This document shows, piece by piece, positions 20,766 through 42,605 of a DNA stretch of 64,000 nt. The position numbers and the translations under genes were made by a program. How positions within the stretch are numbered: the stretch's first letter is position 1; every line of letters begins with the position of its first letter. The DNA is from Giardia intestinalis (lineage: Eukaryota): assembly GCA_000002435.2 (NCBI GenBank), contig CM018793.1. One strand, given 5' to 3'. Under the pieces are notes generated by a model. That model was not told where the DNA came from and did no database searches. It was given only the letters and a program-made list of their open reading frames with translations.

Positions 20766-21626
20766 ATGCATTTAGCGCAATCACTTGAAGAGCTCATTGC
20801 ATCGAGAAATGTGCAAGATGCGGTTAAATTTACAGCTGCAATGACCCAGGAGCAAAGGCTCACCATATCAGAAGACTTTCAAGAGCAATATGGCTCAAGT
20901 GTGGGAGATCATATTAGAAAGCTGATGTCACCATCAAGTTCCACCTCTCTTCTAATAAATATGTGGCTTCCTACAAAGATACTCCGTTTGCGTGTGTTAG
21001 AGCGGAACTTTAAGGAGCTCGTGCCTCTGGAGCTAGCGCACTGTGCAATCACCTGTCCCCAAGAAGAATTTGTAGAGATCTGCGACATTTACAATACTAC
21101 GGCGAAAGCCTCTCTGTATGCGGGGATTCGCAGGCAATGCATTGGGCCAGAGCCCTGGAAGTATCTCGTTCAACAATGGGTCACCTTCAATCATGGATCT
21201 ATAAGCAATTTGGTTTTTCTGAGAGACCAAGCGCGTTGTGCAATCGAAAGTGTCGACGGGAGGCTCTTCGTGGACACCATTTTCAGCGCAGATCGTACCG
21301 TTTGGCCAGTTGTCTGCAAAGAGTACGAATGCCAATATGGAGCACCACTGATCAAAGACCTAGCTGTGTTTGGTGAGGATTCTGCCCCTATTCTTTCGTT
21401 TGCATGCTTATTTATCTGTGACCAAACGCTAGCAATCTCTTATTTACTCAACCAGTTTATCATGACAGGTGACAATGATGGCGCAGGAATCGTATCCGCG
21501 CTGTATTCGGAAGAATGGCATGGGGTTCCTATGGCATATGTGCAGTATGGTTCTTTGAAAGAGGACATACGTGCCAACTTCAGCTCCCGATACACTGAGG
21601 CACTTGCAACAGTCTGGAAGATATAG
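20766..21626 (+). CDS. alpha-giardin (annexin-like, family E) paralog, first of a + strand triplet
   Basis: The 286-aa protein is built from annexin-like roughly 70-aa helical repeats. Its size, a C-terminal ...YTEALATVWKI and its tandem placement with two clear alpha-giardins support the call. The start is an ATG with a very AT-rich upstream (aaaaatttaaataaagaatttaaaaatac). Confidence 0.65.
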   Translation: MHLAQSLEELIASRNVQDAVKFTAAMTQEQRLTISEDFQEQYGSSVGDHIRKLMSPSSSTSLLINMWLPTKILRLRVLERNFKELVPLELAHCAITCPQEEFVEICDIYNTTAKASLYAGIRRQCIGPEPWKYLVQQWVTFNHGSISNLVFLRDQARCAIESVDGRLFVDTIFSADRTVWPVVCKEYECQYGAPLIKDLAVFGEDSAPILSFACLFICDQTLAISYLLNQFIMTGDNDGAGIVSALYSEEWHGVPMAYVQYGSLKEDIRANFSSRYTEALATVWKI

Positions 21627-21680
21627 TAAAGGCGACTGTAGTTTTGACGTTGATTGGCGGTATTGCTATTCCATAAAATT

Positions 21681-22613
21681 ATGTCCTACACTCAACTGAG
21701 TCGAGAGCTTCATGGGCTGGTTGAGGCTGGAGATGAGGTTGGCCTGGCTGTGTTTACTCGCAGGTTCAACGAGCTTCAGCGATCAGAGATGCAGATAGCC
21801 TATCAGGCTTTTCGCGGAGTGGACCTAACGTCCGAGATAAATAAGCGCCTTAAGAACAAAGCTCATGCAGAGCTCCTATCTTCGCTGTGGAAGGAAAGGA
21901 CCACAAATATCGTGGACACGCTCCAGGTCTTGATTAAGCGCAAGAAGAAGTGCCCCAGAGTCGTGCTTTCTGTGGTGTTTGGTAGTTCTCAGAACCAATG
22001 GGAGAAGGTGTCGGCAAGCTGGACAGCAATGTATAAGAATGATCTTTTGACTGCAATCAAGCAAGCCATTCAGCCTAGTGATTTTGTGAATCAGCTCATT
22101 GATAAGTGGGCAGCGGGGCCGCGATCTAACAATGGACAGCTTCGAGAAGGTGCCTATGCTTTAAAACAATCTTTACATGGAGAGGAACAGCCAGCTTTTG
22201 CAAATATTGACGATACAATGGACTACGACAAACTTTCTACAATTCTTGCCACCACCTCCTCCACAGAATGGCCTACCATAGTTTCCATTTATGAAAAGCT
22301 CTCAGGTGTTGCATTCGATAGCCTCCATATATTAGGTTCAAAGAAGTCCAAGATGGCATATGACACAGAGATATTGCACCTCGCAGCCCAGTTTGCTCGC
22401 AGCCCGGCAGAAGGCGTGGCTTATGCATTGAACTGGGCTGTTACTGACAAGGATCTTAGCGACATTTGTTCTTTGACAGCCCTCTTTGTCGACAAGGCTC
22501 CTCAGACAAACATCAGGTACCAGAAGTACGGGGTTCTCCGAGATGATCTCATAGCTGTGCTTACAAGTAAAGTGGCGGCTCCTATCGTCGAGCTTTGGGC
22601 TCCCGAGGCATGA
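21681..22613 (+). CDS. alpha-giardin paralog (annexin-like), second of + strand triplet
   Basis: The protein reads MSYTQLSRELHGLVEAGDEVGLAVFTRRFNELQRSEMQIAYQAFRG..., showing annexin repeat architecture. The track start at 21654 is TTG. The ATG at 21681 sits in ccataaaattATGTCC, the same MSY start context as the other alpha-giardins. Confidence 0.75.
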   Translation: MSYTQLSRELHGLVEAGDEVGLAVFTRRFNELQRSEMQIAYQAFRGVDLTSEINKRLKNKAHAELLSSLWKERTTNIVDTLQVLIKRKKKCPRVVLSVVFGSSQNQWEKVSASWTAMYKNDLLTAIKQAIQPSDFVNQLIDKWAAGPRSNNGQLREGAYALKQSLHGEEQPAFANIDDTMDYDKLSTILATTSSTEWPTIVSIYEKLSGVAFDSLHILGSKKSKMAYDTEILHLAAQFARSPAEGVAYALNWAVTDKDLSDICSLTALFVDKAPQTNIRYQKYGVLRDDLIAVLTSKVAAPIVELWAPEA

Positions 22614-22640
22614 CGTGGATGGATGTTAGTAAATTAAAAG

Positions 22641-23985: not shown

Positions 23986-26900
23986 ATGGAGGAGGGTACA
24001 AGGCACACAATACCGCTCCAGGACATTGTACGCGAGGCGCTGGCAGAGCAGGTGGAGTCCTTCACCCCCATTAAACCACCTCCGCCGCACTTTCTCAACG
24101 AAATTGCAGCTGGACGTAATCGTCAAGCTGCTCGGAGCCAGATGCTTGAGGCGGCACGGAAGAGGGTTTCGGAAAGAAAGGACAGCAAACGGTCCCACAC
24201 CGCCAACATGGATTACTTCACTGGTGATACTATTAATCTACGCCACCTTCGGGAGGAGAAACGTCGAGCAGCTCTCATTGTTGATCGTGCAAACTATCTA
24301 GAGCACGTGGAGGATACTCGTAAGCCACTGCAGCTCTCCAAGAAAGAGATTGAATTTCACAGTTACTTATCAGGAAATATCTATTCCCAGACGATTGTGC
24401 TCACCAATCCAGGACCAACGTCTCGGAGGTATAATATTCTACCTCCGGATGCACCTTTTACTTGCGCTACACTTGCAGGGGAGCTGAAGCCGGGGCTTTC
24501 TAAGACAATAGAGGTACTCTTTCGTCCAGAAAGCTGTGCAGATGCTCAAGGTGTACTTACAGTCCGAGCAAAAAATTTTCAAGCAGTAGTGCCAATTCGA
24601 GCAGCGAATGAAAAGGCTAATTTCGTGTTTTTAGATTGCTGTTTAGACAATAATGAAAGCTCTGACATCTCGAACATCAAAGTAGAAGAGATAGCGCCTT
24701 CAGACTCACGTAAATATAACAAAGTGTTTAACGTCGATCTGGGTCCAATGATGTGTCGCCACGCACAGAAGCACAACCTTAGTCTTATATTGCAACACAA
24801 GGCCACCATGCCATGGCAAGAGTATGTGCAAACTCATAGGTTGCCAATTCAATCACAATATGCAGAGCAACCTCAGGAAGTTCCAATCCTACATTCGATC
24901 CATGTTACAAGTGTTTCAGTAGAGAACTCTAGCGGTGAATGCAAGATGGATTTATATCTAAATAAGGAATCGTGTGAAGGTTGCTATTTTCCGCTAGATC
25001 CTCCGCTGAGCGGCATGCGAACAAAGCTGGGGAAAGACAGACACGCGCGCTTAGAGACTGCTATGGCTCTTGCAGAGAGCGTTGGGCTTCTGGATCCTGC
25101 TGGGGTAGGTATTCATCTGCGGACTTCGTTCAGAAAAGATGCGAGTCTGAATGCGGATAGCCCAGTCGCTGTTGGTTCTTTGTCCTCATCTGCTAGAGAT
25201 AGGCCGGAATATCTGTGTAGAATGGAGCCGGATGGCATATTGTCCTTGGAGCTGGAGTTTGGAGATAACATACAAGCGACAGATACGCATATCGTTTCTA
25301 TTCTAACTGCAGAACGATCGTCCTTGGAGATTCGGCTGCAAGGATACATTAGCAGTGGGTTTGTCGAGATATCTTCGGTAGGCTCTACGCCCCTATCTAC
25401 CAAACCACGTAGTCTCATCAATATCAGCCAATTTCTCGATGGAAACTATACCCTTCTACCAGACCAGCTTTTGAATATTAAAACTAGCCTGTATACTGAT
25501 GGAGTGCAGAGGCTTCCTATTTACATTAATATTAGTAGTCTTCCCGACAAGCTGCTGCATGTATCATTATTGGAGTATACCCATGAGTTAGCCAGAGGTA
25601 TTGTGCCTGCAAACAGATTTCTTGAGAATCCACGAGCAGCATACCCCTGCGAATACATCGATACTGTTCGTCCAACTTCTACAAGTAGCTCGTCTCAATT
25701 GGGTATCTTTTCAATTCAGGATATCAAAACCCTTGCTGACATCCCAACAGAAGATAATGGTCAGATTGACAGCTATATGAAAATACTCAATCTATATTTG
25801 CATTTTTCTGAAAACATTACCACACCACAGAGATGCATCTTGGAACTTTCATACTATCTTCCTGGTGTGTATGCACCGATATTGCGAATTCTATTCACTG
25901 CTGTTCCTATCAGACGTAATCCAGCTTCAGTCAACATGCTGGAGACGGCATTAGCAGAACAGCTGCTGATAAACAGTTTGACGGAGCTCCGATCTGAAAA
26001 GAGAACCGATTATATATTTATTTCCAAGCCGTCTATTGACTTTGGTCTAGTTGCCGTATCTGAGACGGCCAGATTCTGTTTCAGCGTCCGTAATTGCAGC
26101 AAGACAGTCTTTTTCCCATTCATAGTGAGTATAAATCTGAAATCTCACGCAGTATCTATTACAGCGGGCCAGACTCCAGGAGGAATCAATTTCGTCTTGC
26201 ATGATAACACAATAGAGGGGAAGAGTCGTAAAATCTCAGAGACTGTTGAGTTCCCAGATGTTGTGGAGATGCTAGATAATGCTAAGCGCACTTCAGCTAT
26301 TGAAAAGCTGAAGCCGGTCATCACCACAGCTGGAATGGAGCTGAAGGGAGATGATGAAGCTTGTGAAGAAGATGTTTCTCAGTTGAAACAGGCTCTTCCA
26401 GGAAATGTTAATGAATTCCTCAAGCATAACAAGGTATTTGTACCAACTAATGTCCCAACCATCAGAACAACTCAAGGTAATACAAAAGCGCTCAAGGAAC
26501 TAAAGATAAGCAAGCACTTGGCTAACAGCTGTCTCGGTACTAGCACTGGATCTGGATTAAGTGTCAGTGGAAAAGCTTCCATCACATTTGGGGTCACCCA
26601 CTCCAACGACGCAGAGCACACCTCTTCCGTTCCTGAACTAGAGACTCTTAAGTCACGGATGCTGAAGAACAAAGGGAATATAACAGGACTCAACGATGTG
26701 CTGAGTGTTTATCCCTCTTGTGGTATTCTTCCACCTCGTACACAGGTGCAAATTAATGTGGAGCTTTGTCCTCTATCTATAGGTCCCATAGAGGCATTTC
26801 TGGTTATAAACACACCCTCGTCTCAATATTATGCCAATGTCATTCGGAGGATACAGGTACACTTGAAAGAGCAAGAAATGCGCATGTCAACTTATCAGTC

Positions 26901-29900
26901 TGGGTTGAACAAGACGGCCCTAGATCGCATCTACAAGGAGCGTTGCCTTGTAACAGTCCCCGAGCTCGAGCTTATACGCTATCAAGAAAAGCTTAATAAT
27001 ACGCGTCTTTACTCTGCGTCTGACAAACCTATAGACGGTATACTAGGCCATACTAGAAGCACGGCAAGTCTTACCCATGTTAGAAGCAGGAAAAGTCTTA
27101 AGAGCTTAACAGATACGTCTTCACTGGACGACGAGCAGCCGCTGTGGCTTGGGAATGCGGATACAAATCTTTCGGATGACACTAGAGATGAATTCCTCAC
27201 TGAAACTCCCGAAGGAATCATGTCTAATGATAGAGACGTCTGTTGTAGGGTATTTGGTGTTGTTGCTGCACCATCTGTAGCATTTCTAGAAGAATTTATA
27301 GAGCCGACAATGGACAGCGTTAAGTCTGTTACCATTCATCTTAAAAATACTGGACTAACAGAGATAACCGTCAATCTAACTGTTCTGAAAGGAGATGCAA
27401 TGCTAATCCAGCCCATCACCGATGAACAGCGAGCGATACTGACACCAAACTCACTCATGGCATTGGTTAACTCGACCCTTTTACGAAAAGATATTACACT
27501 TACATTGGGTGTTAACGAGACTATACCAGTAGACGTGATGCCTGGTGCCGAGCACGACTCTTATGTTGTGGCGCGCAAGGAGCTATCCTCTTTCGGAGCG
27601 TTAGCGTACAAAATTAGTAAGGACCAGCTAGATCTTTCTGACAACGTAATGCTTTCTGCAGTTCTTATTAAGGCCCGAGTAGAGTCTCCGCGGCCTTATA
27701 TCTACCTTGCTAATGATCCACAGAATAAGTACATAATTAGTGACCCTAAGATACCCCTTACACCAGAGATATTCCTAGATACAAAGCCATACAAGCCGGT
27801 AGTCGTTGAATTCGTTATTGCTAATCCATCCGGCAACCCCTTTACTGCCGAGCTCACAACAGGTCCCGACTTGGTTGCTCCCAGTACTATCAAGATCCCG
27901 CCCAAATCAAAAACGTTTGCCGCTTTTGCAATTCTTCCAGATAGATCCGGTCAGATGACTACGTTTATTAATTTCCACGATTGTCCAGTGCGAATTACCC
28001 TTAACGCAATTGGACCAGATATTGTTATCTCTTCTCCCTATATTAAGAACTCTAATTTGTTGGTTGATCATCAAGGCATGGCAGACGACGTTCTTCCTAT
28101 TACTGGGCCACTGGACCTCTCTAAAGACATGTCAGTTAGCCACAGACAACCAAAGAAGAGCTCAAAGTGGGACGAGATATTAGCCATTTTGCCAAACAGA
28201 ATCATCCACGTGCCTCTTACTTACACTGAACTAACAAATATAATCTCTGACTGTGTGGATACGCGGTCAGTAGATAACGAAGGAGACGACCCCGGTGACC
28301 CTAACGAAGATGCAACACAATCACAGATGGAAGTACTAGATACTCATCTAGCCGGCGGAGTCAAGCTGCCCAGCTCGCAGCAAGAAGCCTTTGCCCCTGT
28401 AAATAGGGACGCAAATCCTATATACCGCATGACAATAGAGGACACAGGAAAGGTGGTGCGTCCCTTGCAAAATTATCTTGACATACTTGACAGCAAGAAA
28501 TATGGAACCGTCATCTCTCAAACTGCAACTTTCAATCGTAGAGAAAACAATAAAAAGCCGCTAGATTTTTCTCGTATGCTGACAAGCAGAGAGCGATTCC
28601 TTGAAATCAGACAGTATCTGCCATCTATCTCTTTCAGCAAGACTGTCGGTGAAACAGCCAGTAGGGTATGTATTAATGTATTCAACCCCACAGTCACCGA
28701 TATGGACGTCGATATCAATGTCTATGACATCCCCAGCAGCTTTATAGGACTGAGAGCTGCACGAGACACTTCTGGCCATATCTATTTACATCCCTCGGGA
28801 CCATTTGTCTCTGAGTCTGTAGAGCACAAGCCTGATTTTGGGCGTCTAGGTCCAGAGTTTGACATGACTGTGCTGCATAGTGACCAGAATTCAGAATCAG
28901 CTACAATCAATACCCCTTCAACTCCAGCAGTGGACTCTACCACGGGTCACCATTTTGCAGCGCAGCTATTGCAGAGGAATGATGATAAGGGGAAAGGAAT
29001 CAACAAGTATTTTAAGGCATCGCCTGAGCACGTGGTTGTTGGCTCTCAGAAGTCCGCAAAGGTCTACATAGAGACCATGAACTTTGACGCCTTTCGAGAG
29101 TTTGAGGGGCTACTAAGTATAAAAGGGCTCTTCTTGTTGCTGAAGTGTCAACGTGTGCAGCCTCAGATATCTCTCAGCGACGGTATTGAGCTTATAAACA
29201 TTGCTGGCTCGTACGAGCGAGATACAGACTTGTTGCTCAATATTTCCAATCCTACGGATGACTGTATGTACACCTTGCTGTTGGACGTGCCTCCGCCCTT
29301 TGAGCTTCTTCAGAAGGAGCTAGCAGTTACCCCTACGCTTTTACGGCCGCACGGACTGCTCAGCTTCAAACTCATCTTACCTGCAGTCAATTGTCTCAAG
29401 ATGGCGCAAAACCAGTGGGTTGGGAAAGTCCCGAGGTCTCTTGAGGCAGCAACGACAATTCTAGATTTACTCAAGCAAGAGAGGACCAAGTTCCTGTTTG
29501 ATTCTACGCTCACCGTCATATTTCCAGAGTGTCGTGATGCGGAGAATACACCATATAATATTGTCTTCCCGATAGCATGTAGGATTGATGCGCCTGCCAT
29601 CACCCCAGAGTTCAGTAATGTAACCTTTCAACCAGCCTTTGTGGGTGAGTACTCTACGAAGTACATCAAGATTGAAAATCCAATCCATCTCTCTGCGTCC
29701 TGGGAAATGCTCCACGTACCACTAGGAGATGCGCAGAAGGTTGCAAACTTGGCCATTAGGAAGCTTCCACCCATGCATCATTTAGAGAACCTGCGCGAGC
29801 TCAAAGAGAAATACCTAGTCAACGAGCTTAATGACATTAAGGCCATTCTTCAGGCTGTGAACAGCACGTTTACGGAGAAGGCTTATGGATCTCTGTTTTA

Positions 29901-30186
29901 TGATGGGCTGACAAATACTATCATGGTCGATGATCCATCAGTCTTCACATTCGATTGCTTTAATGGAGTCATTGAGGGGCACAACAATACACACCCCTAC
30001 AAAAACTTCACAATTACGGCCAGATTTACTCCTGCAGATAACACGAAGAACTGTGCACTGTGTGCTACCAAGGATGGCGAAAAGAAAATAAAATTCTTTT
30101 CAGTATTCTATATTAGAGTGTATGGTGGTGCCGGCGCGTGGATTTTCATGACTGGAGAGGTCACGGAAGATATCTTCCAAATATGA
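23986..30186 (+). CDS. large (2066 aa) protein with multiple ASH/MSP (PapD-like) domains, likely cilia/flagella-associated (CFAP65/CFAP74/hydin-like)
   Basis: At least five segments fit the ASH/MSP beta-sandwich signature: IEFHSYLSGNIYSQTIVLTNPGPTSRRYNILPPDAPFTCATLAGELKPGLSKTIEVLFRPE..., FGLVAVSETARFCFSVRNCSKTVFFPF..., PSCGILPPRTQVQINVELCPLSIGPIEAFLVINTP..., FGVVAAPSVAFLEEFIEPTMDSVKSVTIHLKNTGLTEITVNLTV and PVVVEFVIANPSGNPFTAELTTGPDLVAPSTIKIPPKSKTFAAFAILP. The gene starts at a true ATG. Confidence 0.5.
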   Translation: MEEGTRHTIPLQDIVREALAEQVESFTPIKPPPPHFLNEIAAGRNRQAARSQMLEAARKRVSERKDSKRSHTANMDYFTGDTINLRHLREEKRRAALIVDRANYLEHVEDTRKPLQLSKKEIEFHSYLSGNIYSQTIVLTNPGPTSRRYNILPPDAPFTCATLAGELKPGLSKTIEVLFRPESCADAQGVLTVRAKNFQAVVPIRAANEKANFVFLDCCLDNNESSDISNIKVEEIAPSDSRKYNKVFNVDLGPMMCRHAQKHNLSLILQHKATMPWQEYVQTHRLPIQSQYAEQPQEVPILHSIHVTSVSVENSSGECKMDLYLNKESCEGCYFPLDPPLSGMRTKLGKDRHARLETAMALAESVGLLDPAGVGIHLRTSFRKDASLNADSPVAVGSLSSSARDRPEYLCRMEPDGILSLELEFGDNIQATDTHIVSILTAERSSLEIRLQGYISSGFVEISSVGSTPLSTKPRSLINISQFLDGNYTLLPDQLLNIKTSLYTDGVQRLPIYINISSLPDKLLHVSLLEYTHELARGIVPANRFLENPRAAYPCEYIDTVRPTSTSSSSQLGIFSIQDIKTLADIPTEDNGQIDSYMKILNLYLHFSENITTPQRCILELSYYLPGVYAPILRILFTAVPIRRNPASVNMLETALAEQLLINSLTELRSEKRTDYIFISKPSIDFGLVAVSETARFCFSVRNCSKTVFFPFIVSINLKSHAVSITAGQTPGGINFVLHDNTIEGKSRKISETVEFPDVVEMLDNAKRTSAIEKLKPVITTAGMELKGDDEACEEDVSQLKQALPGNVNEFLKHNKVFVPTNVPTIRTTQGNTKALKELKISKHLANSCLGTSTGSGLSVSGKASITFGVTHSNDAEHTSSVPELETLKSRMLKNKGNITGLNDVLSVYPSCGILPPRTQVQINVELCPLSIGPIEAFLVINTPSSQYYANVIRRIQVHLKEQEMRMSTYQSGLNKTALDRIYKERCLVTVPELELIRYQEKLNNTRLYSASDKPIDGILGHTRSTASLTHVRSRKSLKSLTDTSSLDDEQPLWLGNADTNLSDDTRDEFLTETPEGIMSNDRDVCCRVFGVVAAPSVAFLEEFIEPTMDSVKSVTIHLKNTGLTEITVNLTVLKGDAMLIQPITDEQRAILTPNSLMALVNSTLLRKDITLTLGVNETIPVDVMPGAEHDSYVVARKELSSFGALAYKISKDQLDLSDNVMLSAVLIKARVESPRPYIYLANDPQNKYIISDPKIPLTPEIFLDTKPYKPVVVEFVIANPSGNPFTAELTTGPDLVAPSTIKIPPKSKTFAAFAILPDRSGQMTTFINFHDCPVRITLNAIGPDIVISSPYIKNSNLLVDHQGMADDVLPITGPLDLSKDMSVSHRQPKKSSKWDEILAILPNRIIHVPLTYTELTNIISDCVDTRSVDNEGDDPGDPNEDATQSQMEVLDTHLAGGVKLPSSQQEAFAPVNRDANPIYRMTIEDTGKVVRPLQNYLDILDSKKYGTVISQTATFNRRENNKKPLDFSRMLTSRERFLEIRQYLPSISFSKTVGETASRVCINVFNPTVTDMDVDINVYDIPSSFIGLRAARDTSGHIYLHPSGPFVSESVEHKPDFGRLGPEFDMTVLHSDQNSESATINTPSTPAVDSTTGHHFAAQLLQRNDDKGKGINKYFKASPEHVVVGSQKSAKVYIETMNFDAFREFEGLLSIKGLFLLLKCQRVQPQISLSDGIELINIAGSYERDTDLLLNISNPTDDCMYTLLLDVPPPFELLQKELAVTPTLLRPHGLLSFKLILPAVNCLKMAQNQWVGKVPRSLEAATTILDLLKQERTKFLFDSTLTVIFPECRDAENTPYNIVFPIACRIDAPAITPEFSNVTFQPAFVGEYSTKYIKIENPIHLSASWEMLHVPLGDAQKVANLAIRKLPPMHHLENLRELKEKYLVNELNDIKAILQAVNSTFTEKAYGSLFYDGLTNTIMVDDPSVFTFDCFNGVIEGHNNTHPYKNFTITARFTPADNTKNCALCATKDGEKKIKFFSVFYIRVYGGAGAWIFMTGEVTEDIFQI

Positions 30187-31914: not shown

Positions 31915-33753
31915 TCAGTTTCGACTCACGCTTATTCTATTCTTCACAGATGAGAGATTCTCGTGGTACATCGCTGTTGAGATGTTGTCTCTGCGTTCAG
32001 TCATGGAATTTATGGAGCGAAGGCGCTTGGAGAGACAGTCACTCATTTGGAACTTGCTGGGAGCTTCTCCAGAAGGACCACTACCTGCCGTTCCAGATAA
32101 AGAGGCCGCTGAAACGGGGATAGGTCCACGGGACGTTTTGACATGCTTCATATACGGAGGCCGTATCGTACTAGGATCAGTGACGCCGGCTGCTTCCTGA
32201 CGGCGAATGGGCTGTGCCCGCAACTGCCCTGGGTTAACTCCGTGCTGCACGATGTTGATATTCATCGGTGAGTCATCCACGTAGTAGTTGCAGGATATCC
32301 CCTGCGCTGTAGGTTCATCGTCTAAGAAACCATTGAAGGTATCTGCAGAACCTGCTGGATTACCGCACCCAGGCACCTGGGCTATCCCTCCCTTTGTGTA
32401 AAGAAATGCTTCATGATTGACTGGGCCACCAAGTGTCCCACCAGAGGTGGGCTCATGCTCAGCTCCAGCTAGGAAGTCCTGATAGTCACAATCTGTCTTT
32501 GCTACAGCAATCTGTTCGGAGAGGATGGTCTGCTTCCTCGTGTCACCCGTCACATTACTACCAATCACATTGTCTACGGCCCCGACAATTCCCTGCAATG
32601 CCCCCCGCAACGTGCCATCGTGATCAAGCGCCGTTGTTGCCTCATCTGTTAAAGCGTTGATCCCTCGCAAAAAGGCTTGCTTCATTTGGTCCTTTAAGCC
32701 CTTCTCCTTGACAAGGTACTCATTACGCTCTGCCTGTAACAGCTCTATTTCCTGCTTGTACCGCTCACGCTCCTCCTTAAAGTAAAGCTCCCTTTCCTCC
32801 CTGACTTTGGCTACAGCGTCGTGCGCATCCTCAAAGACACGCATATAACGCTTCTTATAGCATATAAGCCTCCAGTGTGTGAGTGCGTTACGAATCATCC
32901 TTCCTCTACGGAGGTCATCCATCGTGCTGATTACGTGATTGTGACTGGCTTCAAGTCGTGCGTTACGTTTCCACCGGAGGAGTAGTCTGTGGAGCATGAG
33001 TGCATCCCTTTTCTCTTGCTTAAGATGGCTAATGAAGTCTGACATTCTCTCACAACACTCTGTTTTATGGACTTCGAGAGCCTTCAAGGCCTTGTGCTCC
33101 TGTTGAAGCTTTGCCAGTTCTTGTTCGGCATATGCCAATTTCTCTCGCAATATGGAGTTATCCTTAGAGAGAAGGGCTACCTCGTGCTCAACAGATTCGC
33201 TAACACCTTGAGCATAGGCATCTAAAACCATTCTTCTAAATGTGTGCATAGCGTCATCCAAGCCCATGATAAAGATGCCATTTTGGCTTGATGGTAGTGC
33301 ACCAGTTGATGCATGTTGTGTTCCATTAGAAAAAGAATGAGTCCCTGTGCCTGGCGGGGCTCCAGTAGAATGCCCGAGAGAAGTTGTTGTAATAAAAGAC
33401 TGTGACGGATGCTGCTGGCTTGCATAGCTAATGTTATGCTGGGTGGTAGATAGTGCGGCAGACAGTGGGACTGGTGGAAACGAAGCGCTATTTTGATTCC
33501 GTTTAGGCTCCACAACTTGAGCTAAATACGCGTCAGAATCAGGTAATCCACTACTATGCTCGTCATGTCTTTGCGATTTGCTCAGCTCCACGTCTGGCTC
33601 GGCCTGTGGGGCGGGATCTATCAAATCAAGTTGCTCGTGTTCCTGAAACGAAACGGTTGCATTTTTGGCACTTCTTGGCCGCCGACCACATTCGTGCTTG
33701 TAGGATGTCGATAAAGACTCTAGTATGGATGCATATGAAAGGTTAGTGCTCAT
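31915..33753 (-). CDS. coiled-coil protein with two Sfi1/POC5-type centrin-binding repeats (POC5-like)
   Basis: The N-terminal half is S/T/P-rich. The C-terminal half is a long coiled coil containing LLLRWKRNARL and ALTHWRLICYKKRY, which both fit the [F/L]xxW[K/R] core of centrin-binding repeats. The nearby KQAFLRGINAL resembles the POC5 conserved box as I remember it. The start is a true ATG with an AT-rich upstream. Confidence 0.3.
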   Translation of the reverse strand: MSTNLSYASILESLSTSYKHECGRRPRSAKNATVSFQEHEQLDLIDPAPQAEPDVELSKSQRHDEHSSGLPDSDAYLAQVVEPKRNQNSASFPPVPLSAALSTTQHNISYASQQHPSQSFITTTSLGHSTGAPPGTGTHSFSNGTQHASTGALPSSQNGIFIMGLDDAMHTFRRMVLDAYAQGVSESVEHEVALLSKDNSILREKLAYAEQELAKLQQEHKALKALEVHKTECCERMSDFISHLKQEKRDALMLHRLLLRWKRNARLEASHNHVISTMDDLRRGRMIRNALTHWRLICYKKRYMRVFEDAHDAVAKVREERELYFKEERERYKQEIELLQAERNEYLVKEKGLKDQMKQAFLRGINALTDEATTALDHDGTLRGALQGIVGAVDNVIGSNVTGDTRKQTILSEQIAVAKTDCDYQDFLAGAEHEPTSGGTLGGPVNHEAFLYTKGGIAQVPGCGNPAGSADTFNGFLDDEPTAQGISCNYYVDDSPMNINIVQHGVNPGQLRAQPIRRQEAAGVTDPSTIRPPYMKHVKTSRGPIPVSAASLSGTAGSGPSGEAPSKFQMSDCLSKRLRSINSMTERRDNISTAMYHENLSSVKNRISVSRN

Positions 33754-33807
33754 AAATCACCAATTGTAAAATTTCACACATAATATTTTTGGCGAAGCCC
33801 ACGATTA

Positions 33808-34563
33808 ATGAGCTCCTCTAGGTCTACCTCATCGGCACGCCGCACCCCAGCACGAGCAGGGTCAACTGCCAGTCGCGCTACGTCACAGTCTACTCAGGGC
33901 ATATCCTCTTCAAATAGGGTAGCCAGCTCAGCAGCGCAAGATAGGCGCACAGTGTCTAATACTTCTCGAGCATCCTCCAGTACATCACGGTCAGCATCCA
34001 ACGCTGTCAGAAACAGGAGCCTGCCGAGCACAAATGTCGCGGACATGTTTCATGCGAAGTACGGTCGCCTGGACACAGAATCAGAGCTTGAAAAGCGCAT
34101 TATCAAACAGTTAGAGTCCGAGTTAATTAAGGTAAAGAAGCAGCATGAAAAATCAATTACTGAAGCAGCCAATTTACAGCGTTTATTGGACGAACGTGGA
34201 AGGGAACACGACAAGGCGGCAAAGAAGTTCCACAATCTTCGAAAGCAACTAGATGACCTTAATGATCAGCTTGCACAGACAAAAGACGAAAAAGTGCAAG
34301 TTGGAATGCTTGTAGAGCGACAGAAGGAGCAGACGCTGGCTGCCTCGGGAAACCTGAATCGGTACCACATAGCCGTTAAGGATCTTCAGAAAAAGGTCAA
34401 TGAGCTTCAGGAGCAGAGGAATCTTGCAGAGACTACAAATCTGGCCATGAAGCAGGAAATTAAGAAGCTCAATTCAGAGACAGCCTCTCTAGAACAGTCT
34501 AACGCAGCACTACAACGACAAATCGACAAACTGAGTGAGTTAATGTACCTAAAGTTTGAATAG
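33808..34563 (+). CDS. hypothetical coiled-coil protein with Ser/Arg/Thr-rich N-terminal low-complexity region
   Basis: This 251-aa ORF starts at a true ATG. Its first 85 aa or so are S/T/R-rich (SSSRSTSSARRTPARAGSTASRATSQS...). The remainder forms a continuous heptad coiled coil (LESELIKVKKQHEKSITEAANLQRLL...LEQSNAALQRQIDKLSELM). Confidence 0.5.
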   Translation: MSSSRSTSSARRTPARAGSTASRATSQSTQGISSSNRVASSAAQDRRTVSNTSRASSSTSRSASNAVRNRSLPSTNVADMFHAKYGRLDTESELEKRIIKQLESELIKVKKQHEKSITEAANLQRLLDERGREHDKAAKKFHNLRKQLDDLNDQLAQTKDEKVQVGMLVERQKEQTLAASGNLNRYHIAVKDLQKKVNELQEQRNLAETTNLAMKQEIKKLNSETASLEQSNAALQRQIDKLSELMYLKFE

Positions 34564-34665
34564 TCTCCATCGTACAGTATCGTTCCTGTCTTTGGTGTCT
34601 TTAGTATCAGTAACTCACTATGATAGCTTCATAAATTTGTTTCTGGTTAATTAAATAAACCTCTG

Positions 34666-35493
34666 ATGGAGGACACTCACAACAGTGCTCCAGAGGTGGC
34701 TGCGGCGGATTTCAAGATTCTGTGGTTGCAGATCCTTGATTACAAGCCTGCTCCCCTCTACTTTTCCCTTCTTGACAACAGTGAGCGTGTGAATTTTTTC
34801 GTAACGGGGGTTCCTTACATCCTGACGCAGACGCATCTTAACCTTGTCTTTTCTTTCTTTGGGAGCGTGAAAGAGGTTATACTCCGAGACTTTGCTCTGA
34901 GAACGGCGCAGCCGCACTGGTCTGTCTGCGGTCCCCGCTTGCCACGGTATGCAGAAATCCGCTTTGACTCGTACCCAGACAAACTGACAGACTACACAGA
35001 AACAACTCTTTACTTTAATGGCAAGGACGTGAGTGATAAGAAGGACTCTGTCCCGCTGGAGTATAACTTTCTGTCACTTGTAGCCATGTATACACAAGCA
35101 TACGTTCGGGATACTTGTATGCCCGCAGATATCCTTGCAGAAGTGGCAGAGATATTTGTGAGAAAGTACGATGCATATTTGGGAGAAGCAGCGTCTGATC
35201 GCTCTCAGAAAGATGAGGATGGATGGAAGACGCTTAGACCTGACAGCAAATACTATAGGAACACCTATGTTTCGAAGAATAAGATATTAGGAATAGATGA
35301 GGAGTACACAGCTATGAAGCTTAAACAGATGAACCAAAAGATGGTGGAAAAGGGCTTCTATAAGTTTCAGCAAATAGAGAAAAAGCAGAGCGATTTGGAG
35401 AAGCTGAGACGCCGGCATGCGGCAGATAAGGAGGTTATAGAGAGGATGCGCTGCGCTGGCCGGCTCAATCCCTTCTTGCACAACATGAAATAG
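34666..35493 (+). CDS. RRP7-like ribosomal RNA processing protein
   Basis: The C-terminal DEDGWKTLRP...KGFYKFQQIEKKQSDLEKLRRRHAADKEVIERMRCAGRLNPF fits the RRP7 C-terminal signature (DEDGF..V.R...K...DFYRFQ.RE.K...L..L+.+FEEDK..I..M+..R+F.PF). The N-terminal part is compatible with a degenerate RRM-like fold. The start context is ggttaattaaataaacctctgATG. Confidence 0.55.
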   Translation: MEDTHNSAPEVAAADFKILWLQILDYKPAPLYFSLLDNSERVNFFVTGVPYILTQTHLNLVFSFFGSVKEVILRDFALRTAQPHWSVCGPRLPRYAEIRFDSYPDKLTDYTETTLYFNGKDVSDKKDSVPLEYNFLSLVAMYTQAYVRDTCMPADILAEVAEIFVRKYDAYLGEAASDRSQKDEDGWKTLRPDSKYYRNTYVSKNKILGIDEEYTAMKLKQMNQKMVEKGFYKFQQIEKKQSDLEKLRRRHAADKEVIERMRCAGRLNPFLHNMK

Positions 35494-37437
35494 CTATTCC
35501 AGGACGTCTGTCGTTTTCCTGAGATAAGTGGCAACAACGCGGGCTGCCTTATTCAGCACGAAGCGCATTCTATCAATTGAAAAGTAGATCCGTCGTTGAT
35601 ATTTTGATATCGCCTCTATCCGTGTTGCACGGGGAAGCGCGGGCCTGTCATTAAAGTAGGGTACTGCCACATTAGCAATGGCATAGCTCTTAAGAGGTAA
35701 CGACGGAGCAATGATGGACACTTCCAAGAGCACATGTGTGGGTTTAAGAGCCACGTCAAAAGGCAGAATAAACTGAGCTGTTTGCAATAGGTTGCCACTA
35801 CGAGGAATAAAAATAGCATCTGGGTGTTTGTAAAGAACAAAGCATAAGGTCGCCCAGACGAAGTTCCGCTCCATGGGGGAAATCAGCAAGCCATCAGGTT
35901 CATAGAAAAAACACTTCGCTAGCCGCTCTCTTAGTGTGTGTATAGAAGATACATTTATAACAGTATTACCAATCAATAGCAAGGGCTCTACAATGTTACC
36001 GATATAGCGACAACTACTTTGACCGAGTGCAAGAGCATCGGGGCACACAAGCTTAATTACATTAGTCCCTGTTATAAAGGCCTTCATAGCGTGTGGGCTA
36101 AACATCAATGTGTGTAGTTGCATAGCGTTTGTATGTTTAATAGAAGGTGCTGTGCAATTCGAAAACATAGGAGCACAGACACTAGCACCATCCTCTACTT
36201 GGTTGTTGTAGGTATTTGTGGGGTCTTGACCTTTCTCTGGAACAACAGTGTCTTTGGATGGAAGATATGCGCAGCCCTCGCCAAACGGCTTCTGATCTTG
36301 ATGCATGCTCTGACGCAGACGAGATTGTGCTAGTATAGGGAACAGTGCTGAGGATGTTTGGTTGTAAAGGTCATTTGGAGCGCATGAAGAAGAGGTTGGC
36401 GCGGCAATAGGATCCCTGATTGCAGATACTACATATTCTGGCACAAGCCTTTCTCCACGGTGAGAGACCGATGCTGTGGAAGGTCGTATACCAGCTGTAA
36501 CTTTTGGTGCAGAACATTTTGTGGGCAAGGGAGTAAGTTTGTCATAGCTTCCAAGGAGGTAACTTTTGAGATACTGATCGGCAGAGAGGTGGCCGTCCTT
36601 CAATTCATGGCTCCTTTGCTGCAGAGCCATGAGGCATGCCTGAATGAGCTTTTCATTATCTTTAAGCTGTGTCTTCAGCAATTGATTCCGCGAGTCTACT
36701 TCATTGGAGGCTTTTGCAATAGTGCGTCTCAGAATGTCTCTATCTTTGTAAAGATTCTCCAACATTCCATGGAGATCTAAATCAGTTTTCGTATCTCGAA
36801 GCGTGGCGCACAGTGAAGCTGTTTCGGTCGTGCTACTAGTAGCAGCCAGGTCAGCAAGTGTGTTACATTTTGTAGCATTGGCTGATGAAGGCCGCACCAG
36901 GCGAGTACCTTGTGTCCTTTGGCGCTGAGATTGCTCCATCTGCAGTTGCTTGAGCCGGTTATCAAACTCTCCGGCAAAAATGGGATTAGTATTGCTATGA
37001 GACGAGGCAGATGCTTCAGGGCTTGCAGAAGACTTGCTACAGCTGCTTTTCTGAGACTCTCTCCGGTGCCTTGAAGATGTAAGGGGAGACACCTGTCCAC
37101 CGGTACAGCCACGATCAAGAGGGTCAGAGTGATCGCTATCGTCCAGAATGCGCTGTTGTATCCGATATACTTGCGAGGCCAAGGACTCAGCCCGCCGCTT
37201 ACTCCGCAGTTCTGAGATAGAGAAGCTTTTTAGGACATCGTCACTAAGCTGGGCAAGAAAGTCATCCTGCAGCAGCCTGGTCTGGAACTCTGCCACTGCA
37301 GATAGCTGGTCAGCTTGTGGGGGCGGACTTTCGTGGGTTGGAGCTGCAAGGTAGGGCTTTACGTCAAGGATGGTTGCGTCTCGCAGTCGACGGGTGCACG
37401 TCCGCAGGCGCTCGTCGCGAGGGCGGGGGTCCAGCAT
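35494..37437 (-). CDS. hypothetical protein (S-rich linker, coiled coil, conserved-looking C-terminal globular domain)
   Basis: The track ORF begins at a TTG at 37446. The first ATG is at 37437 (MLDPRPRDERL...). There is a coiled coil (LENLYKDRDILRRTIAKASNEVDSRNQLLKTQLKDNEKLIQ) and a roughly 300-aa hydrophobic-core C-terminal domain. I recognised no family. Confidence 0.45.
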   Translation of the reverse strand: MLDPRPRDERLRTCTRRLRDATILDVKPYLAAPTHESPPPQADQLSAVAEFQTRLLQDDFLAQLSDDVLKSFSISELRSKRRAESLASQVYRIQQRILDDSDHSDPLDRGCTGGQVSPLTSSRHRRESQKSSCSKSSASPEASASSHSNTNPIFAGEFDNRLKQLQMEQSQRQRTQGTRLVRPSSANATKCNTLADLAATSSTTETASLCATLRDTKTDLDLHGMLENLYKDRDILRRTIAKASNEVDSRNQLLKTQLKDNEKLIQACLMALQQRSHELKDGHLSADQYLKSYLLGSYDKLTPLPTKCSAPKVTAGIRPSTASVSHRGERLVPEYVVSAIRDPIAAPTSSSCAPNDLYNQTSSALFPILAQSRLRQSMHQDQKPFGEGCAYLPSKDTVVPEKGQDPTNTYNNQVEDGASVCAPMFSNCTAPSIKHTNAMQLHTLMFSPHAMKAFITGTNVIKLVCPDALALGQSSCRYIGNIVEPLLLIGNTVINVSSIHTLRERLAKCFFYEPDGLLISPMERNFVWATLCFVLYKHPDAIFIPRSGNLLQTAQFILPFDVALKPTHVLLEVSIIAPSLPLKSYAIANVAVPYFNDRPALPRATRIEAISKYQRRIYFSIDRMRFVLNKAARVVATYLRKTTDVLE

Positions 37438-37501
37438 ACACAGCAACTTTGCTTTTCAAAGAGAGCTAGAGAGTCTATCCATTCTGCTTCCGGGCAAGCG
37501 T

Positions 37502-37583
37502 GACAGTTTGGCCGAGTGGTTAAGGCGATTGACTAGAAATCAATTGTGCTCCGCACGCATGGGTTCGAATCCCATAGCTGTCG
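37502..37583 (+). tRNA. tRNA-Ser (anticodon AGA), class II tRNA with long variable arm
   Basis: I folded it by hand. The acceptor stem GACAGTT/AGCTGTC has 7 bp including one G-U pair. The D arm is GCC-GAGTGGTTAA-GGC, typical of Ser/Leu tRNAs. The anticodon stem ATTGA/TCAAT carries the loop CTAGAAA, giving anticodon AGA. There is a long variable arm (TGTGCTCCGCACGC), the T arm is ATGGG-TTCGAAT-CCCAT, and the discriminator is G. No CCA is encoded. Confidence 0.85.
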
Positions 37584-37605
37584 CTTTCGCCCCCAAAGAA
37601 AAAAG

Positions 37606-39693
37606 ATGCCCGACTTCGTCACCGAGCGCCTCGCCAAGTTCAACGCCCTGCGTGAGAGGCACGCCGCCTCGCAGCCCACCGGGGGCCCTTTCACTGTCAC
37701 GCTGCCCGATGGAAAGACCACCGAGATCCCCGCAAGCTTTACAGCCCTCGACGTGGCCAAACAAGTCGTCAAAAACAAGAAGGTCTACTCCAAGTTTCTG
37801 GCCGCCGTTAGGGACGACGAGGTCATTGACATGTCTGCAAGATTAGGGAAGACCTGCAAGCTCGAGTTCCTCACCTTTGACGACCCTCGGGCAAGAGAAG
37901 TTTTCTGGCACTCCTCTGCGCATCTTCTGGGCTATGCACTTGAAAAGACATTCCAGGCCCACCTAGGTCATGGCCCGGCTATCGACTCCGGCTTCTTCTA
38001 TGACGCCTTTTTCGAGAACTCTCTGAAGATGGAGCCCGAGAGTCTCCTGCAGCTCGACAAGGCAGCTGCAGAAATCGTGAAGCAGGCCGCAGCAGCACCT
38101 GGCGATTCTCCTGTCCGCCGCTTCACACGTCTCGAGGTGACCAAGCAAGAGGCTCTCGATCTCTTTAGCTATTCGAAACTGAAGTCAGAGCTTATATCGG
38201 ATCACGTGCAAGATGGAGAGATGTGCAGTGTGTACCAGTGCGGGGATTTTGTCGACTTCTGCCGCGGCCCACATATTCCTGACTTGGGTCTTATCCAAGC
38301 CTTCAAGTGCATGTACTCCTCTGCTGCCTACTTCAAGGGCGATCAGAACCGCGAGTCTATGCAGCGCGTTTATGCGGTTGCCTTCCCCAGCAAAGACCAA
38401 CTAGATAAGCACATTGAACTTCTCGAGGAGGCAAAGAGACGAGATCATAGAAATCTAGCCAAGGAAATGGATCTTTTCATGACGCACAAGTATGCTCCGG
38501 GCGCGCCAATGTTCATGAACAATGGCACACGGATCTACCGCAAGCTCGAAGCTTTTATTCGCGAGCTCCTCCATGAGTTTGATTATGAAGAGGTCATGAC
38601 ACCGACGTTTCTCAACACTGATCTTTGGGGTATCTCTGGGCACCTGCAGCATTATAAGGAGAACATGTTCTTGTTAGAACGCAAGGAGAAAACCGATCCC
38701 CAATACGGTCTGAAACCCATGAACTGTCCGTGTCACTGTCTCCTCTATAAGAACCAGCACCACTCAGTACAAGAGCTTCCGATACGGATGGCAGAGTTTG
38801 GAGTTGTGCACCGCAATGAGCTTTCCGGTGCCCTCTCTGGCCTGACTCGTGTAGTGCGTTTTGAGCAAGATGATGCACACATTTTCTGCACCGTTGATCA
38901 AATAGAGCAGGAAATGACTGGCTTGATCGAATTTATCAAACGCGTTTATACACCCTTCGGGATTGACTTTGCTCTATCCTTATCTCTGAGACCAGAGAAA
39001 AAGATGGGCTCCGATGAGCTCTGGGATCGTGCAGAGGGCACCCTTCGCAAAGTCTTGACGAACACCGGCCTCGATTTTAAGGAAAATCCCGGGGATGGAG
39101 CGTTTTACGGCCCGAAGATTGATGTCCATCTAACAGATGCCTTAGGAAGACAGCATCAGTGCGGTACCATTCAGCTTGACTTCAACCTCCCCAGTAAGGA
39201 TAGGTTCGACCTGCTTTACAGTGTTTATGACGAAAAGACAGGCAGCGTGAAGCAGGAGCACCCAGTGATGATTCATAGGGCTATCCTTGGATCCGTTGAG
39301 CGCTTCATGGCCATCCTTATTGAAAACACGGGAGGCCGCTTTCCCTTTTGGATCAGCCCTCGTCAAATTGTGGTCATTCCTCTCCATGGCGAAGATATCG
39401 TTGCATACGCCAAGACCGTCCGCGAGCGATACCATTCAAAGGGCTATTTTGTAGATCTCGATATATCTTCCGAAAAGATGGAGAAGAAAATAGCTGTTGC
39501 ATGGAACAAGAAGTACAACTTCATTATGGTTGTGGGAGCTCAGGAGAAAGGAACCTGCAGTGTAGCTCTTAGTGGCCGCACGCTTAGCGCTTACATCGGT
39601 GAAAAGGACAACCAGCGAGCACGCAAAGTCCTTACCCTAGAGGAAACGGACGCCCTGCTGGCAGAGCTGTCGAGTGGCCGCGCGAACATGTGA
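37606..39693 (+). CDS. threonyl-tRNA synthetase (cytosolic, class II)
   Basis: The protein has an N-terminal TGS-like region, an editing domain, a class II catalytic core (LKPMNCPCHCLLYK, FGVVHRNELSGALSGLTRVVRFEQDDAHIF, HRAILGSVERFMAILIEN) and a C-terminal anticodon-binding domain. The track ORF at 37546 starts inside the tRNA gene at a non-ATG codon. The real ATG at 37606 is preceded by ccccaaagaaaaaag. Confidence 0.92.
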   Translation: MPDFVTERLAKFNALRERHAASQPTGGPFTVTLPDGKTTEIPASFTALDVAKQVVKNKKVYSKFLAAVRDDEVIDMSARLGKTCKLEFLTFDDPRAREVFWHSSAHLLGYALEKTFQAHLGHGPAIDSGFFYDAFFENSLKMEPESLLQLDKAAAEIVKQAAAAPGDSPVRRFTRLEVTKQEALDLFSYSKLKSELISDHVQDGEMCSVYQCGDFVDFCRGPHIPDLGLIQAFKCMYSSAAYFKGDQNRESMQRVYAVAFPSKDQLDKHIELLEEAKRRDHRNLAKEMDLFMTHKYAPGAPMFMNNGTRIYRKLEAFIRELLHEFDYEEVMTPTFLNTDLWGISGHLQHYKENMFLLERKEKTDPQYGLKPMNCPCHCLLYKNQHHSVQELPIRMAEFGVVHRNELSGALSGLTRVVRFEQDDAHIFCTVDQIEQEMTGLIEFIKRVYTPFGIDFALSLSLRPEKKMGSDELWDRAEGTLRKVLTNTGLDFKENPGDGAFYGPKIDVHLTDALGRQHQCGTIQLDFNLPSKDRFDLLYSVYDEKTGSVKQEHPVMIHRAILGSVERFMAILIENTGGRFPFWISPRQIVVIPLHGEDIVAYAKTVRERYHSKGYFVDLDISSEKMEKKIAVAWNKKYNFIMVVGAQEKGTCSVALSGRTLSAYIGEKDNQRARKVLTLEETDALLAELSSGRANM

Positions 39694-40672: not shown

Positions 40673-40716
40673 TATTTTAAAACAGTCACACCTTTTCAAA
40701 TGCTTTTGAATTCAAA

Positions 40717-41628
40717 TTATGGGCACAGGGAAGGGATGCCCCACAAAGTAGCGCATGCGCGCGCAACTGGCTCGCGGAATACACGTCTTATATCGCTTCC
40801 AATGTCTCCATACCTTTTGTAGTGTTCTCCTATATCCTTCACTCTATCATAGCAGAAGGCTGTAACACGTATGAGTCTATCGTGGTCTCCATAGTCTGCA
40901 ACAGCCCTGTATATCAAGAGAGCAGCCGCCTCGGCCTGGCCTAGCAATGCTTGAGATGCTAGCTGGCAAGCAACAAGATCGTGCCGCCTGAGGGTGTTGC
41001 TAAGAACCGACATGAGGGTGTCTCCAGCCTGGCGCTCGAACGCATTCAAAGTAAATTGCCAGGTGCTGGGGTCTGCGGTCCCTATTATGAAGGCTATTGC
41101 ATCTATATCCTTCGTCCGAAGAGCAACAAGGAGCTTGTTAGCGTCAGCTTCAGGGTCAGTGCTCCGCAGCTTCTGTGACTCTATCCACAGGAGGCAAAGT
41201 TTCGCCCAGAGGGACGGAAGCTTCGAAAGAACTATGTTGAGCGTGGCTGGGAGCTGAGTCTTGTAGGTGGTACTGTACTCCTTGCAGATTGTATGCCATT
41301 CATTATTCCCCGCAGAATCACTTACTGTAGGCGATAGAATAATGGTATCGATCAAGGAGGGCGGATTAATGTTATCTACGATACCCGCATGAATGGTGCG
41401 GACTCGTGCCGCGGTGTTCATGCTCCACACTAGGGTCATAAGGAGCTGGATATGTCCCCTGGGCAGATAGAAAACGATAGAATCAGCTAGAGAACGGTTG
41501 TGAATAGAAAGGTAAGTGGCGGATAAATCCTTTTTGTCTTGTGCAAGCTTGCTTAGTTGCACAAGCTCTTGCTCATCCTGCGTCGTGAGACATCTGTGCA
41601 ATTCGGTGCATAAAGAGATGTGGTCCAT
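40717..41628 (-). CDS. alpha-giardin paralog (annexin-like), second of - strand triplet
   Basis: The C-terminal ...YKRYGDIGSDIRRVFREPVARACATLWG matches the alpha-1 giardin end motif Y.MYGD.G.DIER.F......LW that I recall. The track start at 41667 is GTG. The ATG at 41628 (MDHISLCTELHRCLTTQDEQELV) is preceded by caagcaaaaaactct. Confidence 0.8.
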   Translation of the reverse strand: MDHISLCTELHRCLTTQDEQELVQLSKLAQDKKDLSATYLSIHNRSLADSIVFYLPRGHIQLLMTLVWSMNTAARVRTIHAGIVDNINPPSLIDTIILSPTVSDSAGNNEWHTICKEYSTTYKTQLPATLNIVLSKLPSLWAKLCLLWIESQKLRSTDPEADANKLLVALRTKDIDAIAFIIGTADPSTWQFTLNAFERQAGDTLMSVLSNTLRRHDLVACQLASQALLGQAEAAALLIYRAVADYGDHDRLIRVTAFCYDRVKDIGEHYKRYGDIGSDIRRVFREPVARACATLWGIPSLCP

Positions 41629-41714
41629 AGAGTTTTTTGCTTGACTGGAGACTGTGACTTCCCACACATTTACTGACTGCTGACTACTTTTACTAGATTA
41701 CTAAGTTTACTAAG

Positions 41715-42605
41715 TTATAGAACCCCCCACATGGTACAACAGGCCTCGCCGAAATTGCTCTTGAACACTCTGCGAATATCGCGTGCTAGATTACCGAAAA
41801 TAGCGTAGTTAAGCTTCACGTGCGGGCATTTGTCGTAATACATTGCCGTTGCGCGTGCACATCTCTCAACGTCACCCTTCTCTTCGACCGCCCTGAAGAT
41901 CAGGTACGCAGCGCCCTCGTTGGCATTGTTCAGGAAATGATGTGCAGTATGCGCGGCCGTTAGATCGTTCCCCTTGAACACTGTGCGCATACAATCGTGG
42001 ACAGTGCGCGACGTGGAAATTTCAAAGGCCTTTGAAATGCGCGCCCACTCATCGGGAGTTGTGGTGCCCAAGAGCTGAACAACGGCGTCCTCGTCTGCTT
42101 TCTTGCCACTGAGCGCCACGCGAAGCGCCTCTGCGTCTCCGGCGGGGTCATTTCGGGGTGCTCGACGAAATGCTATCCAAGAGAGGCAGAGGCGCGCCCA
42201 AAATGTCTTCGACCCAAGCTCTTGGAGCAGGTCGTTTGATAGATCGCGTCCAGTGCTGTTCTGATAGTACCTAGTAATGTAGTCCCATTCGTCCGGATTC
42301 GTTGTCAAAATATAGTCACATATTGCCTTTGGATTTTTGCCACCCTTCATCAGGGTTGTAAGATTTTGCGCCTTCATCTCTGGATACGGCTCCCAGGCCA
42401 TTGACATAAGACTTTGGAAGGGTCCTTTTTTGCAGTACATCTTGATGGCCTCACTTATGACGCGACCATGGTGCGCTTGGAAGGCGTTGGAAATCTCCTG
42501 ACGTTCTGCAGTTTTGTACCTCGCTGTTATCTTAAGCAAACCATCGTCGTTGCCATCGATTAGATGACGATTCAGCTCGTCTGCAACCTTGATAAAATCG
42601 ACCAT
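41715..42605 (-). CDS. alpha-giardin paralog (annexin-like), first of - strand triplet (296 aa)
   Basis: The protein reads MVDFIKVADELNRHLIDGNDDGLLKITARYKTAERQEISNAFQAHHG... and ends ...NYAIFGNLARDIRRVFKSNFGEACCTMWGVL. I prefer the ATG at 42605 (context gataaaaaccaaATG) over the upstream ATG at 42701. That upstream ATG would add a lysine-rich 32-aa extension encoded by the AT-rich promoter itself. Confidence 0.8.
   Translation of the reverse strand: MVDFIKVADELNRHLIDGNDDGLLKITARYKTAERQEISNAFQAHHGRVISEAIKMYCKKGPFQSLMSMAWEPYPEMKAQNLTTLMKGGKNPKAICDYILTTNPDEWDYITRYYQNSTGRDLSNDLLQELGSKTFWARLCLSWIAFRRAPRNDPAGDAEALRVALSGKKADEDAVVQLLGTTTPDEWARISKAFEISTSRTVHDCMRTVFKGNDLTAAHTAHHFLNNANEGAAYLIFRAVEEKGDVERCARATAMYYDKCPHVKLNYAIFGNLARDIRRVFKSNFGEACCTMWGVL

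Follow-up and report, generated by a model that had tools for sequence, protein, structure and literature searches.

Two opposed triplets of alpha-giardin genes in Giardia intestinalis: diverged tandem duplicates probably separated by chromosome rearrangement

The 64,000-nucleotide stretch of Giardia intestinalis contig CM018793.1 analyzed here (assembly GCA_000002435.2; hereafter the window) carries six alpha-giardin genes, three head-to-tail on the + strand and three on the - strand, with other genes between the two triplets. Comparison with the corresponding locus of Giardia muris leads us to read the six genes as old, strongly diverged tandem duplicates, whose mirror layout was probably left by later chromosome rearrangement, a single array being the most economical starting point. 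The layout almost certainly did not come from an inverted duplication, an explanation put forward in the initial annotation of this DNA. The six genes, abbreviated α10 to α18, are as follows.

20766..21626, + strand: alpha-18 giardin gene (α18), 286 amino acids (aa), exact match to KAE8304691 / XP_001705087
21681..22613, + strand: alpha-17 giardin gene (α17), 310 aa, exact match to KAE8304692
22641..23738, + strand: alpha-16 giardin gene (α16), 365 aa, exact match to KAE8304693
39749..40672, - strand: alpha-11 giardin gene (α11), 307 aa, exact match to KAE8304702
40717..41628, - strand: alpha-15 giardin gene (α15), 303 aa, exact match to KAE8304703
41715..42605, - strand: alpha-10 giardin gene (α10), 296 aa, exact match to KAE8304704 / XP_001705104.2

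All six are named alpha-giardins. The names were taken from exact-sequence look-up in NCBI and UniProt, and the WB accessions run consecutively within each triplet (KAE8304691-693 for α18, α17 and α16; KAE8304702-704 for α11, α15 and α10) on a 4.02-Mb contig, which identifies the window as the reference strain, G. intestinalis WB. Residues 2-307 of α11 are identical to the crystallized alpha-11 giardin (PDB 2II2/2IIC). The initial annotation had placed three alpha-giardin genes on each strand here and proposed naming the paralogs by database comparison; the six open reading frames (ORFs) found at these positions, with their exact matches and the Pfam and PDB matches described below, bear this out.

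Pfam annexin-type models were matched above the curated cutoff by all six proteins: PF00191 (Annexin) by α10 (51 bits), α11 and α16 (37 bits), and PF22293 (Annexin E1 fourth repeat, ANXE1_4th) by α10 (98 bits), α15 (85 bits), α17 (40 bits) and α18 (31 bits), while α11 scored 188 bits against PF21397 (Annexin_3, Alpha-11 giardin annexin domain). The alpha-1 giardin structure 4EVF aligned end to end with α18, α17 and α15, and 2II2 (alpha-11 giardin) was also aligned over its full length by α17 and α15. In α16, residues 110-339 matched 4EVF, with further PDB matches to annexins A2 and VI, and the whole of α10 could be aligned with α11 and α15. An insertion of ~60-80 residues in the first annexin repeat sets α16 apart from the other five (alignment columns 47-125); the G. 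muris α16 has only 320 aa, compared with 365 aa for the protein encoded in the window. Neither the GxGT type II Ca2+ loop nor the relaxed pattern [KRM]GxG[TSD] occurs in any of the six proteins, which fits the poor preservation of type II Ca2+ sites reported for alpha-giardins (PMC4863580) and leaves their membership of the fold unaffected. Ca2+-dependent phospholipid binding by these annexin homologues and their association with cytoskeleton and membranes are taken from the literature, as are their varied localizations, which are summarized in PMC5329650. A hidden Markov model built from the six proteins detected no annexin-like ORF in the window beyond these six, ruling out a hidden family member.

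The clustering of these genes is far beyond chance. Passages in PMC4863580 and PMC2723961 cite Weiland et al. 2005 for the description of 21 alpha-giardin genes. With 21 genes (number from PMC4863580) scattered over 11.7 Mb (genome size from PMC2723961), 0.04 family genes are expected in 21.8 kb and the probability of at least six is ~5e-12, which rejects chance co-location. Each triplet is a run of three adjacent, same-strand homologous genes with short spacers, i.e., a tandem gene array; the spacers measure 54 bp (α18-α17), 27 bp (α17-α16), 44 bp (α11/α15) and 86 bp (α15/α10). The second idea of the initial annotation, a hotspot of tandem birth, survives in modified form. Local relatedness agrees in part with such an origin: the best paralogue of α15 is its neighbor α10 (30% identity, 152 bits), and α16 and α17 group at 52% bootstrap in a neighbor-joining tree (300 bootstraps, ~290 columns, built without ten WB family members). 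The converse fails for α10, which has its strongest paralogue matches in α7.1 (200 bits) and α4 (157 bits); in the tree, α11 joins α7.1 at 62%.

The evidence on how the two triplets came to face each other was obtained from G. muris, where two loci were merged into a 31.4-kb segment of CM016925.1 (364-396 kb; TNJ29449-TNJ29461). This segment contains exactly five annexin ORFs. Read from left to right, α18, α11 and α10 point to the left and, after 8.4 kb, α17, α16 and an ASH-domain gene point to the right. Five of the six window genes have one-to-one positional orthologues here, which lie within 14 kb. Immediately following α16, the G. muris ASH gene is orthologous to the one found in that place in the window (42% identical). 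As in G. intestinalis, there are two oppositely oriented head-to-tail clusters, and the adjacencies α17-α16-ASH and α10-α11 are kept. The two loci differ in the position of α18, which stands head-to-tail beside α11 in G. muris and head-to-tail beside α17 in G. intestinalis. They also differ in that the G. muris clusters diverge whereas those of G. intestinalis converge, and in the G. muris spacer, whose 8.4 kb hold eight other, unrelated genes: L18A, TOR1L1-like, lipase, NAD synthase, two unknowns, a dynein C-terminal fragment and flavodoxin. None of the six window spacer genes at 30198-37437 is matched by an orthologue between the two G. muris clusters. Finally, the 31-kb G. muris segment contains neither α15 nor any remnant of it.

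The orthology of the five shared genes is clear from the tree: the G. intestinalis/G. muris pairs of α10, α11, α16, α17 and α18 are each recovered at 89-100% bootstrap, with 100% for the α18 pair. This grouping of each gene with its namesake indicates that five of the six paralogue lineages, all but α15, are older than the split between the two species. Rates of change are uneven. Between the species, α10 is 68% and α11 56% identical, whereas α18 (33%), α17 (~33%, from partial alignments) and α16 (29%) have diverged far faster.

Both gene orders recur beyond the two reference assemblies. A second muris-like genome, 82-85% identical in DNA to the reference, keeps the G. muris order. Two divergent assemblage-level contigs show the G. 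intestinalis order, one reading α18-α17-α16-ASH-DZIP-proteasome (L003) and the other α10-α15-α11-ThrRS-...-proteasome (L008), where ThrRS stands for threonyl-tRNA synthetase. Accessions in P15, DHA2 and GS run in an order that fits the G. intestinalis layout, and all 21 alpha-giardins have been described as syntenic in isolate GS (PMC2723961). A search for an intermediate Giardia lineage by way of α11 and α16 homologues returned only layouts of the G. intestinalis type (L003, L008) or the G. muris type (L007). The muris-like sequences come from Logan sample SRR30592944 (contigs L004 and L007), a Giardia closely resembling, yet distinct from, the G. muris reference; its proteins are 98% (α10), 91% (α11) and 85% (α18) identical to those of G. 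muris, in the same order α10-α11-α18. Previous studies found the alpha-giardins of G. muris at similar loci, some of the genes being missing or rearranged (PMC4863580), and reported that small-scale rearrangements between G. intestinalis and G. muris are frequent (PMC7641422).

Two further G. muris genes anchor the comparison. Flavodoxin adjoins α17 and a 222-aa gene adjoins α18 in G. muris, while their orthologues are adjacent to each other at 50362-51678 of the window. The anchors were located by tblastn of the G. muris genes:

49800-50330, - strand: flavodoxin-like gene
50362-50886, - strand: flavodoxin-like gene
50905-51678, - strand: 257-aa gene

G. muris flavodoxin is 60% and 42% identical to the two window flavodoxin-like genes, and the 222-aa gene is 31% identical to the window 257-aa gene. 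The two flavodoxin-like genes (FMN reductase type) form a tandem pair with 44% identity, present as a single copy in G. muris.

The loci were then written as signed blocks, with B1 the 222-aa gene, B2 the genes from flavodoxin to α10 and α11, B3 α18, and B4 α17, α16 and ASH. The order is +B1 +B2 -B4 -B3 in G. intestinalis and +B1 -B3 -B2 +B4 in G. muris. The sole path of two reversals between them runs through +B1 +B2 +B3 +B4, which is one head-to-tail array, the natural product of tandem duplication. We infer, with moderate confidence, that a single ancestral head-to-tail array was broken by inversions. Under this scenario, the starting point would be one array, α10 > (α15) > α11 > α18 > α17 > α16 > ASH, which would have been cut between α11 and α18 in the G. 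intestinalis lineage and between α18 and α17 in the G. muris lineage. If the stretch of G. muris that runs from α18 to flavodoxin is turned around, two G. intestinalis adjacencies reappear, α18|α17 and 222-aa gene|flavodoxin; because one inversion recovers both, inversion is more credible than a relocation of α18 alone.

Several observations weigh against a single array. The comparison has no outgroup to polarize the rearrangements: the ancestor may have had the G. intestinalis layout, the G. muris layout or the single array, and in the first two cases the array would be only a passing stage within one lineage. The second breakpoint proposed for G. intestinalis is unconfirmed: beyond ASH, G. 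muris carries Snf7 and an ABC transporter in place of the genes from DZIP to ThrRS, and the best ThrRS contig from outside G. intestinalis (L004, muris-like, 71% identity) has none of the window neighbors. As the neighbors of ASH and ThrRS differ, two events cannot have sufficed. The deep nodes of the tree, with its limited columns and family sampling, are weak (9% for α10+α15 and 3% for α18+α17+α16), and it therefore does not establish array neighbors as sister genes; it also groups α18 with α15 at 46%, probably through long-branch attraction. α15 has no G. muris counterpart at the locus, and was either lost there or gained later.

The alternative that survives best, although we consider it unlikely, is that the clusters (α10, α15, α11) and (α17, α16) were always separate, having arisen independently at nearby sites, and that α18 relocated in one lineage without a six-gene array ever having existed. 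Both species do show two clusters parted by unrelated genes, the spacers of the two species are not homologous, and the phylogeny ties α18 firmly to neither cluster; several further rearrangements in the wider neighborhood also make complex histories plausible. This scenario, however, demands that the move placed α18 precisely at the other cluster's end and head-to-tail with it. The joint recovery of α18|α17 and 222-aa|flavodoxin by one inversion stays unexplained, and more breakpoints are needed than on the inversion path.

A candidate trace of the G. intestinalis cut lies next to α18:

19041..20765, no strand assigned: ORF-free 1.7-kb stretch directly upstream of α18, containing no ORF with a Pfam match

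Its 1.7 kb compare with 27-250 bp for the neighboring spacers. The longest stop-free run is 135 aa, compared with 121 ± 28 in shuffled sequences, and the GC content is 0.53. Searches of this stretch for a decayed annexin, a decayed neighboring gene, an RNA family (Rfam) or a tandem repeat found none. Two independent short-read assemblies break off within it, at window positions 20283 and 20089, and a divergent assemblage matches its last 51 bp only. The stretch is possibly a rearrangement boundary. More tentatively, independent inversions in the two lineages may have cut a six-gene array α10-α15-α11-α18-α17-α16, one on each side of α18, with 19041-20765 as the G. intestinalis scar or recombination substrate. 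If this is true, the alpha-giardin array would be a place where Giardia chromosomes have broken repeatedly during their evolution.

We also weighed whether the clustering was kept for function, as a co-regulated unit with a paralog-specific promoter marked by a common ATG context, and judge this very improbable. The start contexts quoted in the initial annotation both exist, ccataaaattATGTCC at 21671 (α17) and ttttaaaataATGTCC on the - strand at 40682 (α11), but the paralog-specific promoter structure read from them is not supported. An A-tract at most 20 nt upstream of the ATG was found at 14 of the 27 gene-sized ORFs in the window, including unrelated neighbors such as ThrRS and a 3208-aa gene (6513-16139, - strand, a single ORF), and an MSY start is present in only three of the six proteins (α17, α16 and α11). 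An AT-rich initiator is general in Giardia, and one stands directly before the ATG in each of the six genes. If α10 is read from its correct start, the A-tract occurs in 6/6 giardins versus 9/21 other genes (Fisher one-sided p = 0.017). Together with the shared MSY start, this enrichment is what favors a co-regulated unit; the stronger A-rich initiator of the six giardins is consistent with high expression and not with paralog-specific structure, the motif itself being the generic one. The upstream regions of the six genes share no alignable common sequence. Moreover, the clusters were broken and reoriented between species with five genes retained, and the reported localizations vary among α10, α11, α15, α16 and α17 (PMC5329650).

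Concerning the α10 start, an alternative upstream ATG at 42701 gives 328 aa (older annotation XP_001705104.1), whereas 42605 gives 296 aa (current); the latter alone has an A-rich context and alone fits the length of the G. muris protein (295 aa). At the other end of the genes, the motif AGTRAA, the Giardia polyadenylation signal, is found soon after the stop codon in five of the six. These motifs and the 27-86 bp spacers mark the six genes as separate transcription units. Just past the α10 stop, 41689-41716 holds three tandem copies of a 9-nt unit (gene strand, CTTAGTAAA), in which the polyadenylation-signal-like AGTAAA is triplicated; a fourth copy follows a few bases on.

An ancient inverted segmental duplication of a three-gene unit, pairing α18 with α10, α17 with α15 and α16 with α11, is the least credible of the alternatives, and we set it aside as extremely improbable. 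What speaks for it is the layout itself, three genes per strand in mirror orientation, and the fact that α10 is the top match of α18 among the six, though at just 57 bits. In an all-against-all BLASTP comparison, pairwise identity among the six proteins was 17-31%, and the pairing of first with first, second with second and third with third member proposed in the initial annotation was not recovered: the mirror pairs scored 57 bits (α18/α10), 50 bits (α17/α15) and 37 bits (α16/α11), compared with 152 bits for α10-α15 and 128 bits for α10-α11, the strongest pairs, both inside the - strand triplet. α10, the least diverged member, is the top match within the six for α17 and α16 as well as for α18, so that α17 and α16 each match it better than their presumed partner. 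In the tree, the mirror-pair clades received 1.7% (α18/α10), 0.3% (α17/α15) and 0% (α16/α11) bootstrap. In the wider family set, α10 is nearer to α7.1, α4 and α9, on other contigs, than to α18, and α11 is nearer to α7.1, whereas α18, α17 and α16 are roughly equidistant from all; α10, α11 and α15 are closer to genes elsewhere in the genome (α7.1, α4, α1) than to the + strand triplet.

DNA comparison gave the same answer. Between the two arms with their 1.5-kb flanks, blastn at word size 7 returned only chance matches of at most 30 nt; the flanks are dissimilar and no inverted repeat above 30 nt joins the arms. Self-blastn revealed no internal repeats in the window at E <= 1e-3, and a repeat search reported no inverted pair joining 20.7-23.7 kb to 39.7-42.6 kb. 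The G. muris locus, with its 3+2 split, α18 beside α11 and no α15, is likewise incompatible with a conserved 3+3 mirror unit.

The genes between the triplets, and the features assigned to them, are listed below.

23986..30186, + strand: ASH/CFAP65-like Ig-domain protein (2066 aa), the first spacer gene; Pfam ASH, Ig_CFAP65_4th
30198-31121, - strand: DZIP1-like protein, weak; Pfam 18 bits versus a cutoff of 27.9
31164-31808, + strand: proteasome alpha type-7; Pfam scan, PDB search
31915-33753, - strand: 612-aa protein; no Pfam match
33808-34563, + strand: 251-aa coiled-coil protein; Pfam scan
34666-35493, + strand: RRP7; Pfam
35494-37437, - strand: 647-aa protein; no Pfam match
37502..37584, + strand: tRNA-Ser (anticodon AGA); ARAGORN, Rfam tRNA 61 bits
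37606..39693, + strand: threonyl-tRNA synthetase (695 aa); Pfam tRNA-synt_2b, tRNA_SAD, HGTP_anticodon

The earlier gene list for this block was right on ASH, proteasome alpha type-7, RRP7, tRNA-Ser and ThrRS. Its DZIP1-like call falls below the cutoff, its 'POC5-like' 612-aa protein has no Pfam match, and it missed the 251-aa and 647-aa genes. The window ThrRS is 99% identical to a named Giardia ThrRS, and the 3' ends of ThrRS and α11 are 55 bp apart. A 158-aa ORF (37370-37846) and a GTG-extended ThrRS start (37546-37605) overlap tRNA-Ser and were discarded as artefacts; the true start is the ATG at 37606.

Together, our results are of an ordinary kind. The literature already covers the genes, the family to which they belong, their clustering and the occurrence of rearranged loci in G. 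muris, and the significance of the present analysis beyond bookkeeping is small. Its useful outcomes are the clean rejection of an inverted duplication, an explicit rearrangement model that would account for the presence of α18 in different clusters of the two Giardia species, and the finding that α16-α18 evolve much faster than α10 and α11 (~30% versus 56-68% between-species identity).

With respect to known systems, the window genes are themselves members of the G. intestinalis alpha-giardin family (group E annexins) and, this being the reference-strain locus, show no difference from it; the four-repeat annexin architecture, with a core of ~300 aa, is common to the six genes and the family. 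Local clusters of annexin paralogues have also been described on chromosomes 3, 4 and 6 of S. salmonicida, where they were read as gene duplication loci (PMC4863580). Those clusters differ from the Giardia ones in representing an independent expansion; Giardiinae and Hexamitinae share no orthologues (PMC4863580).

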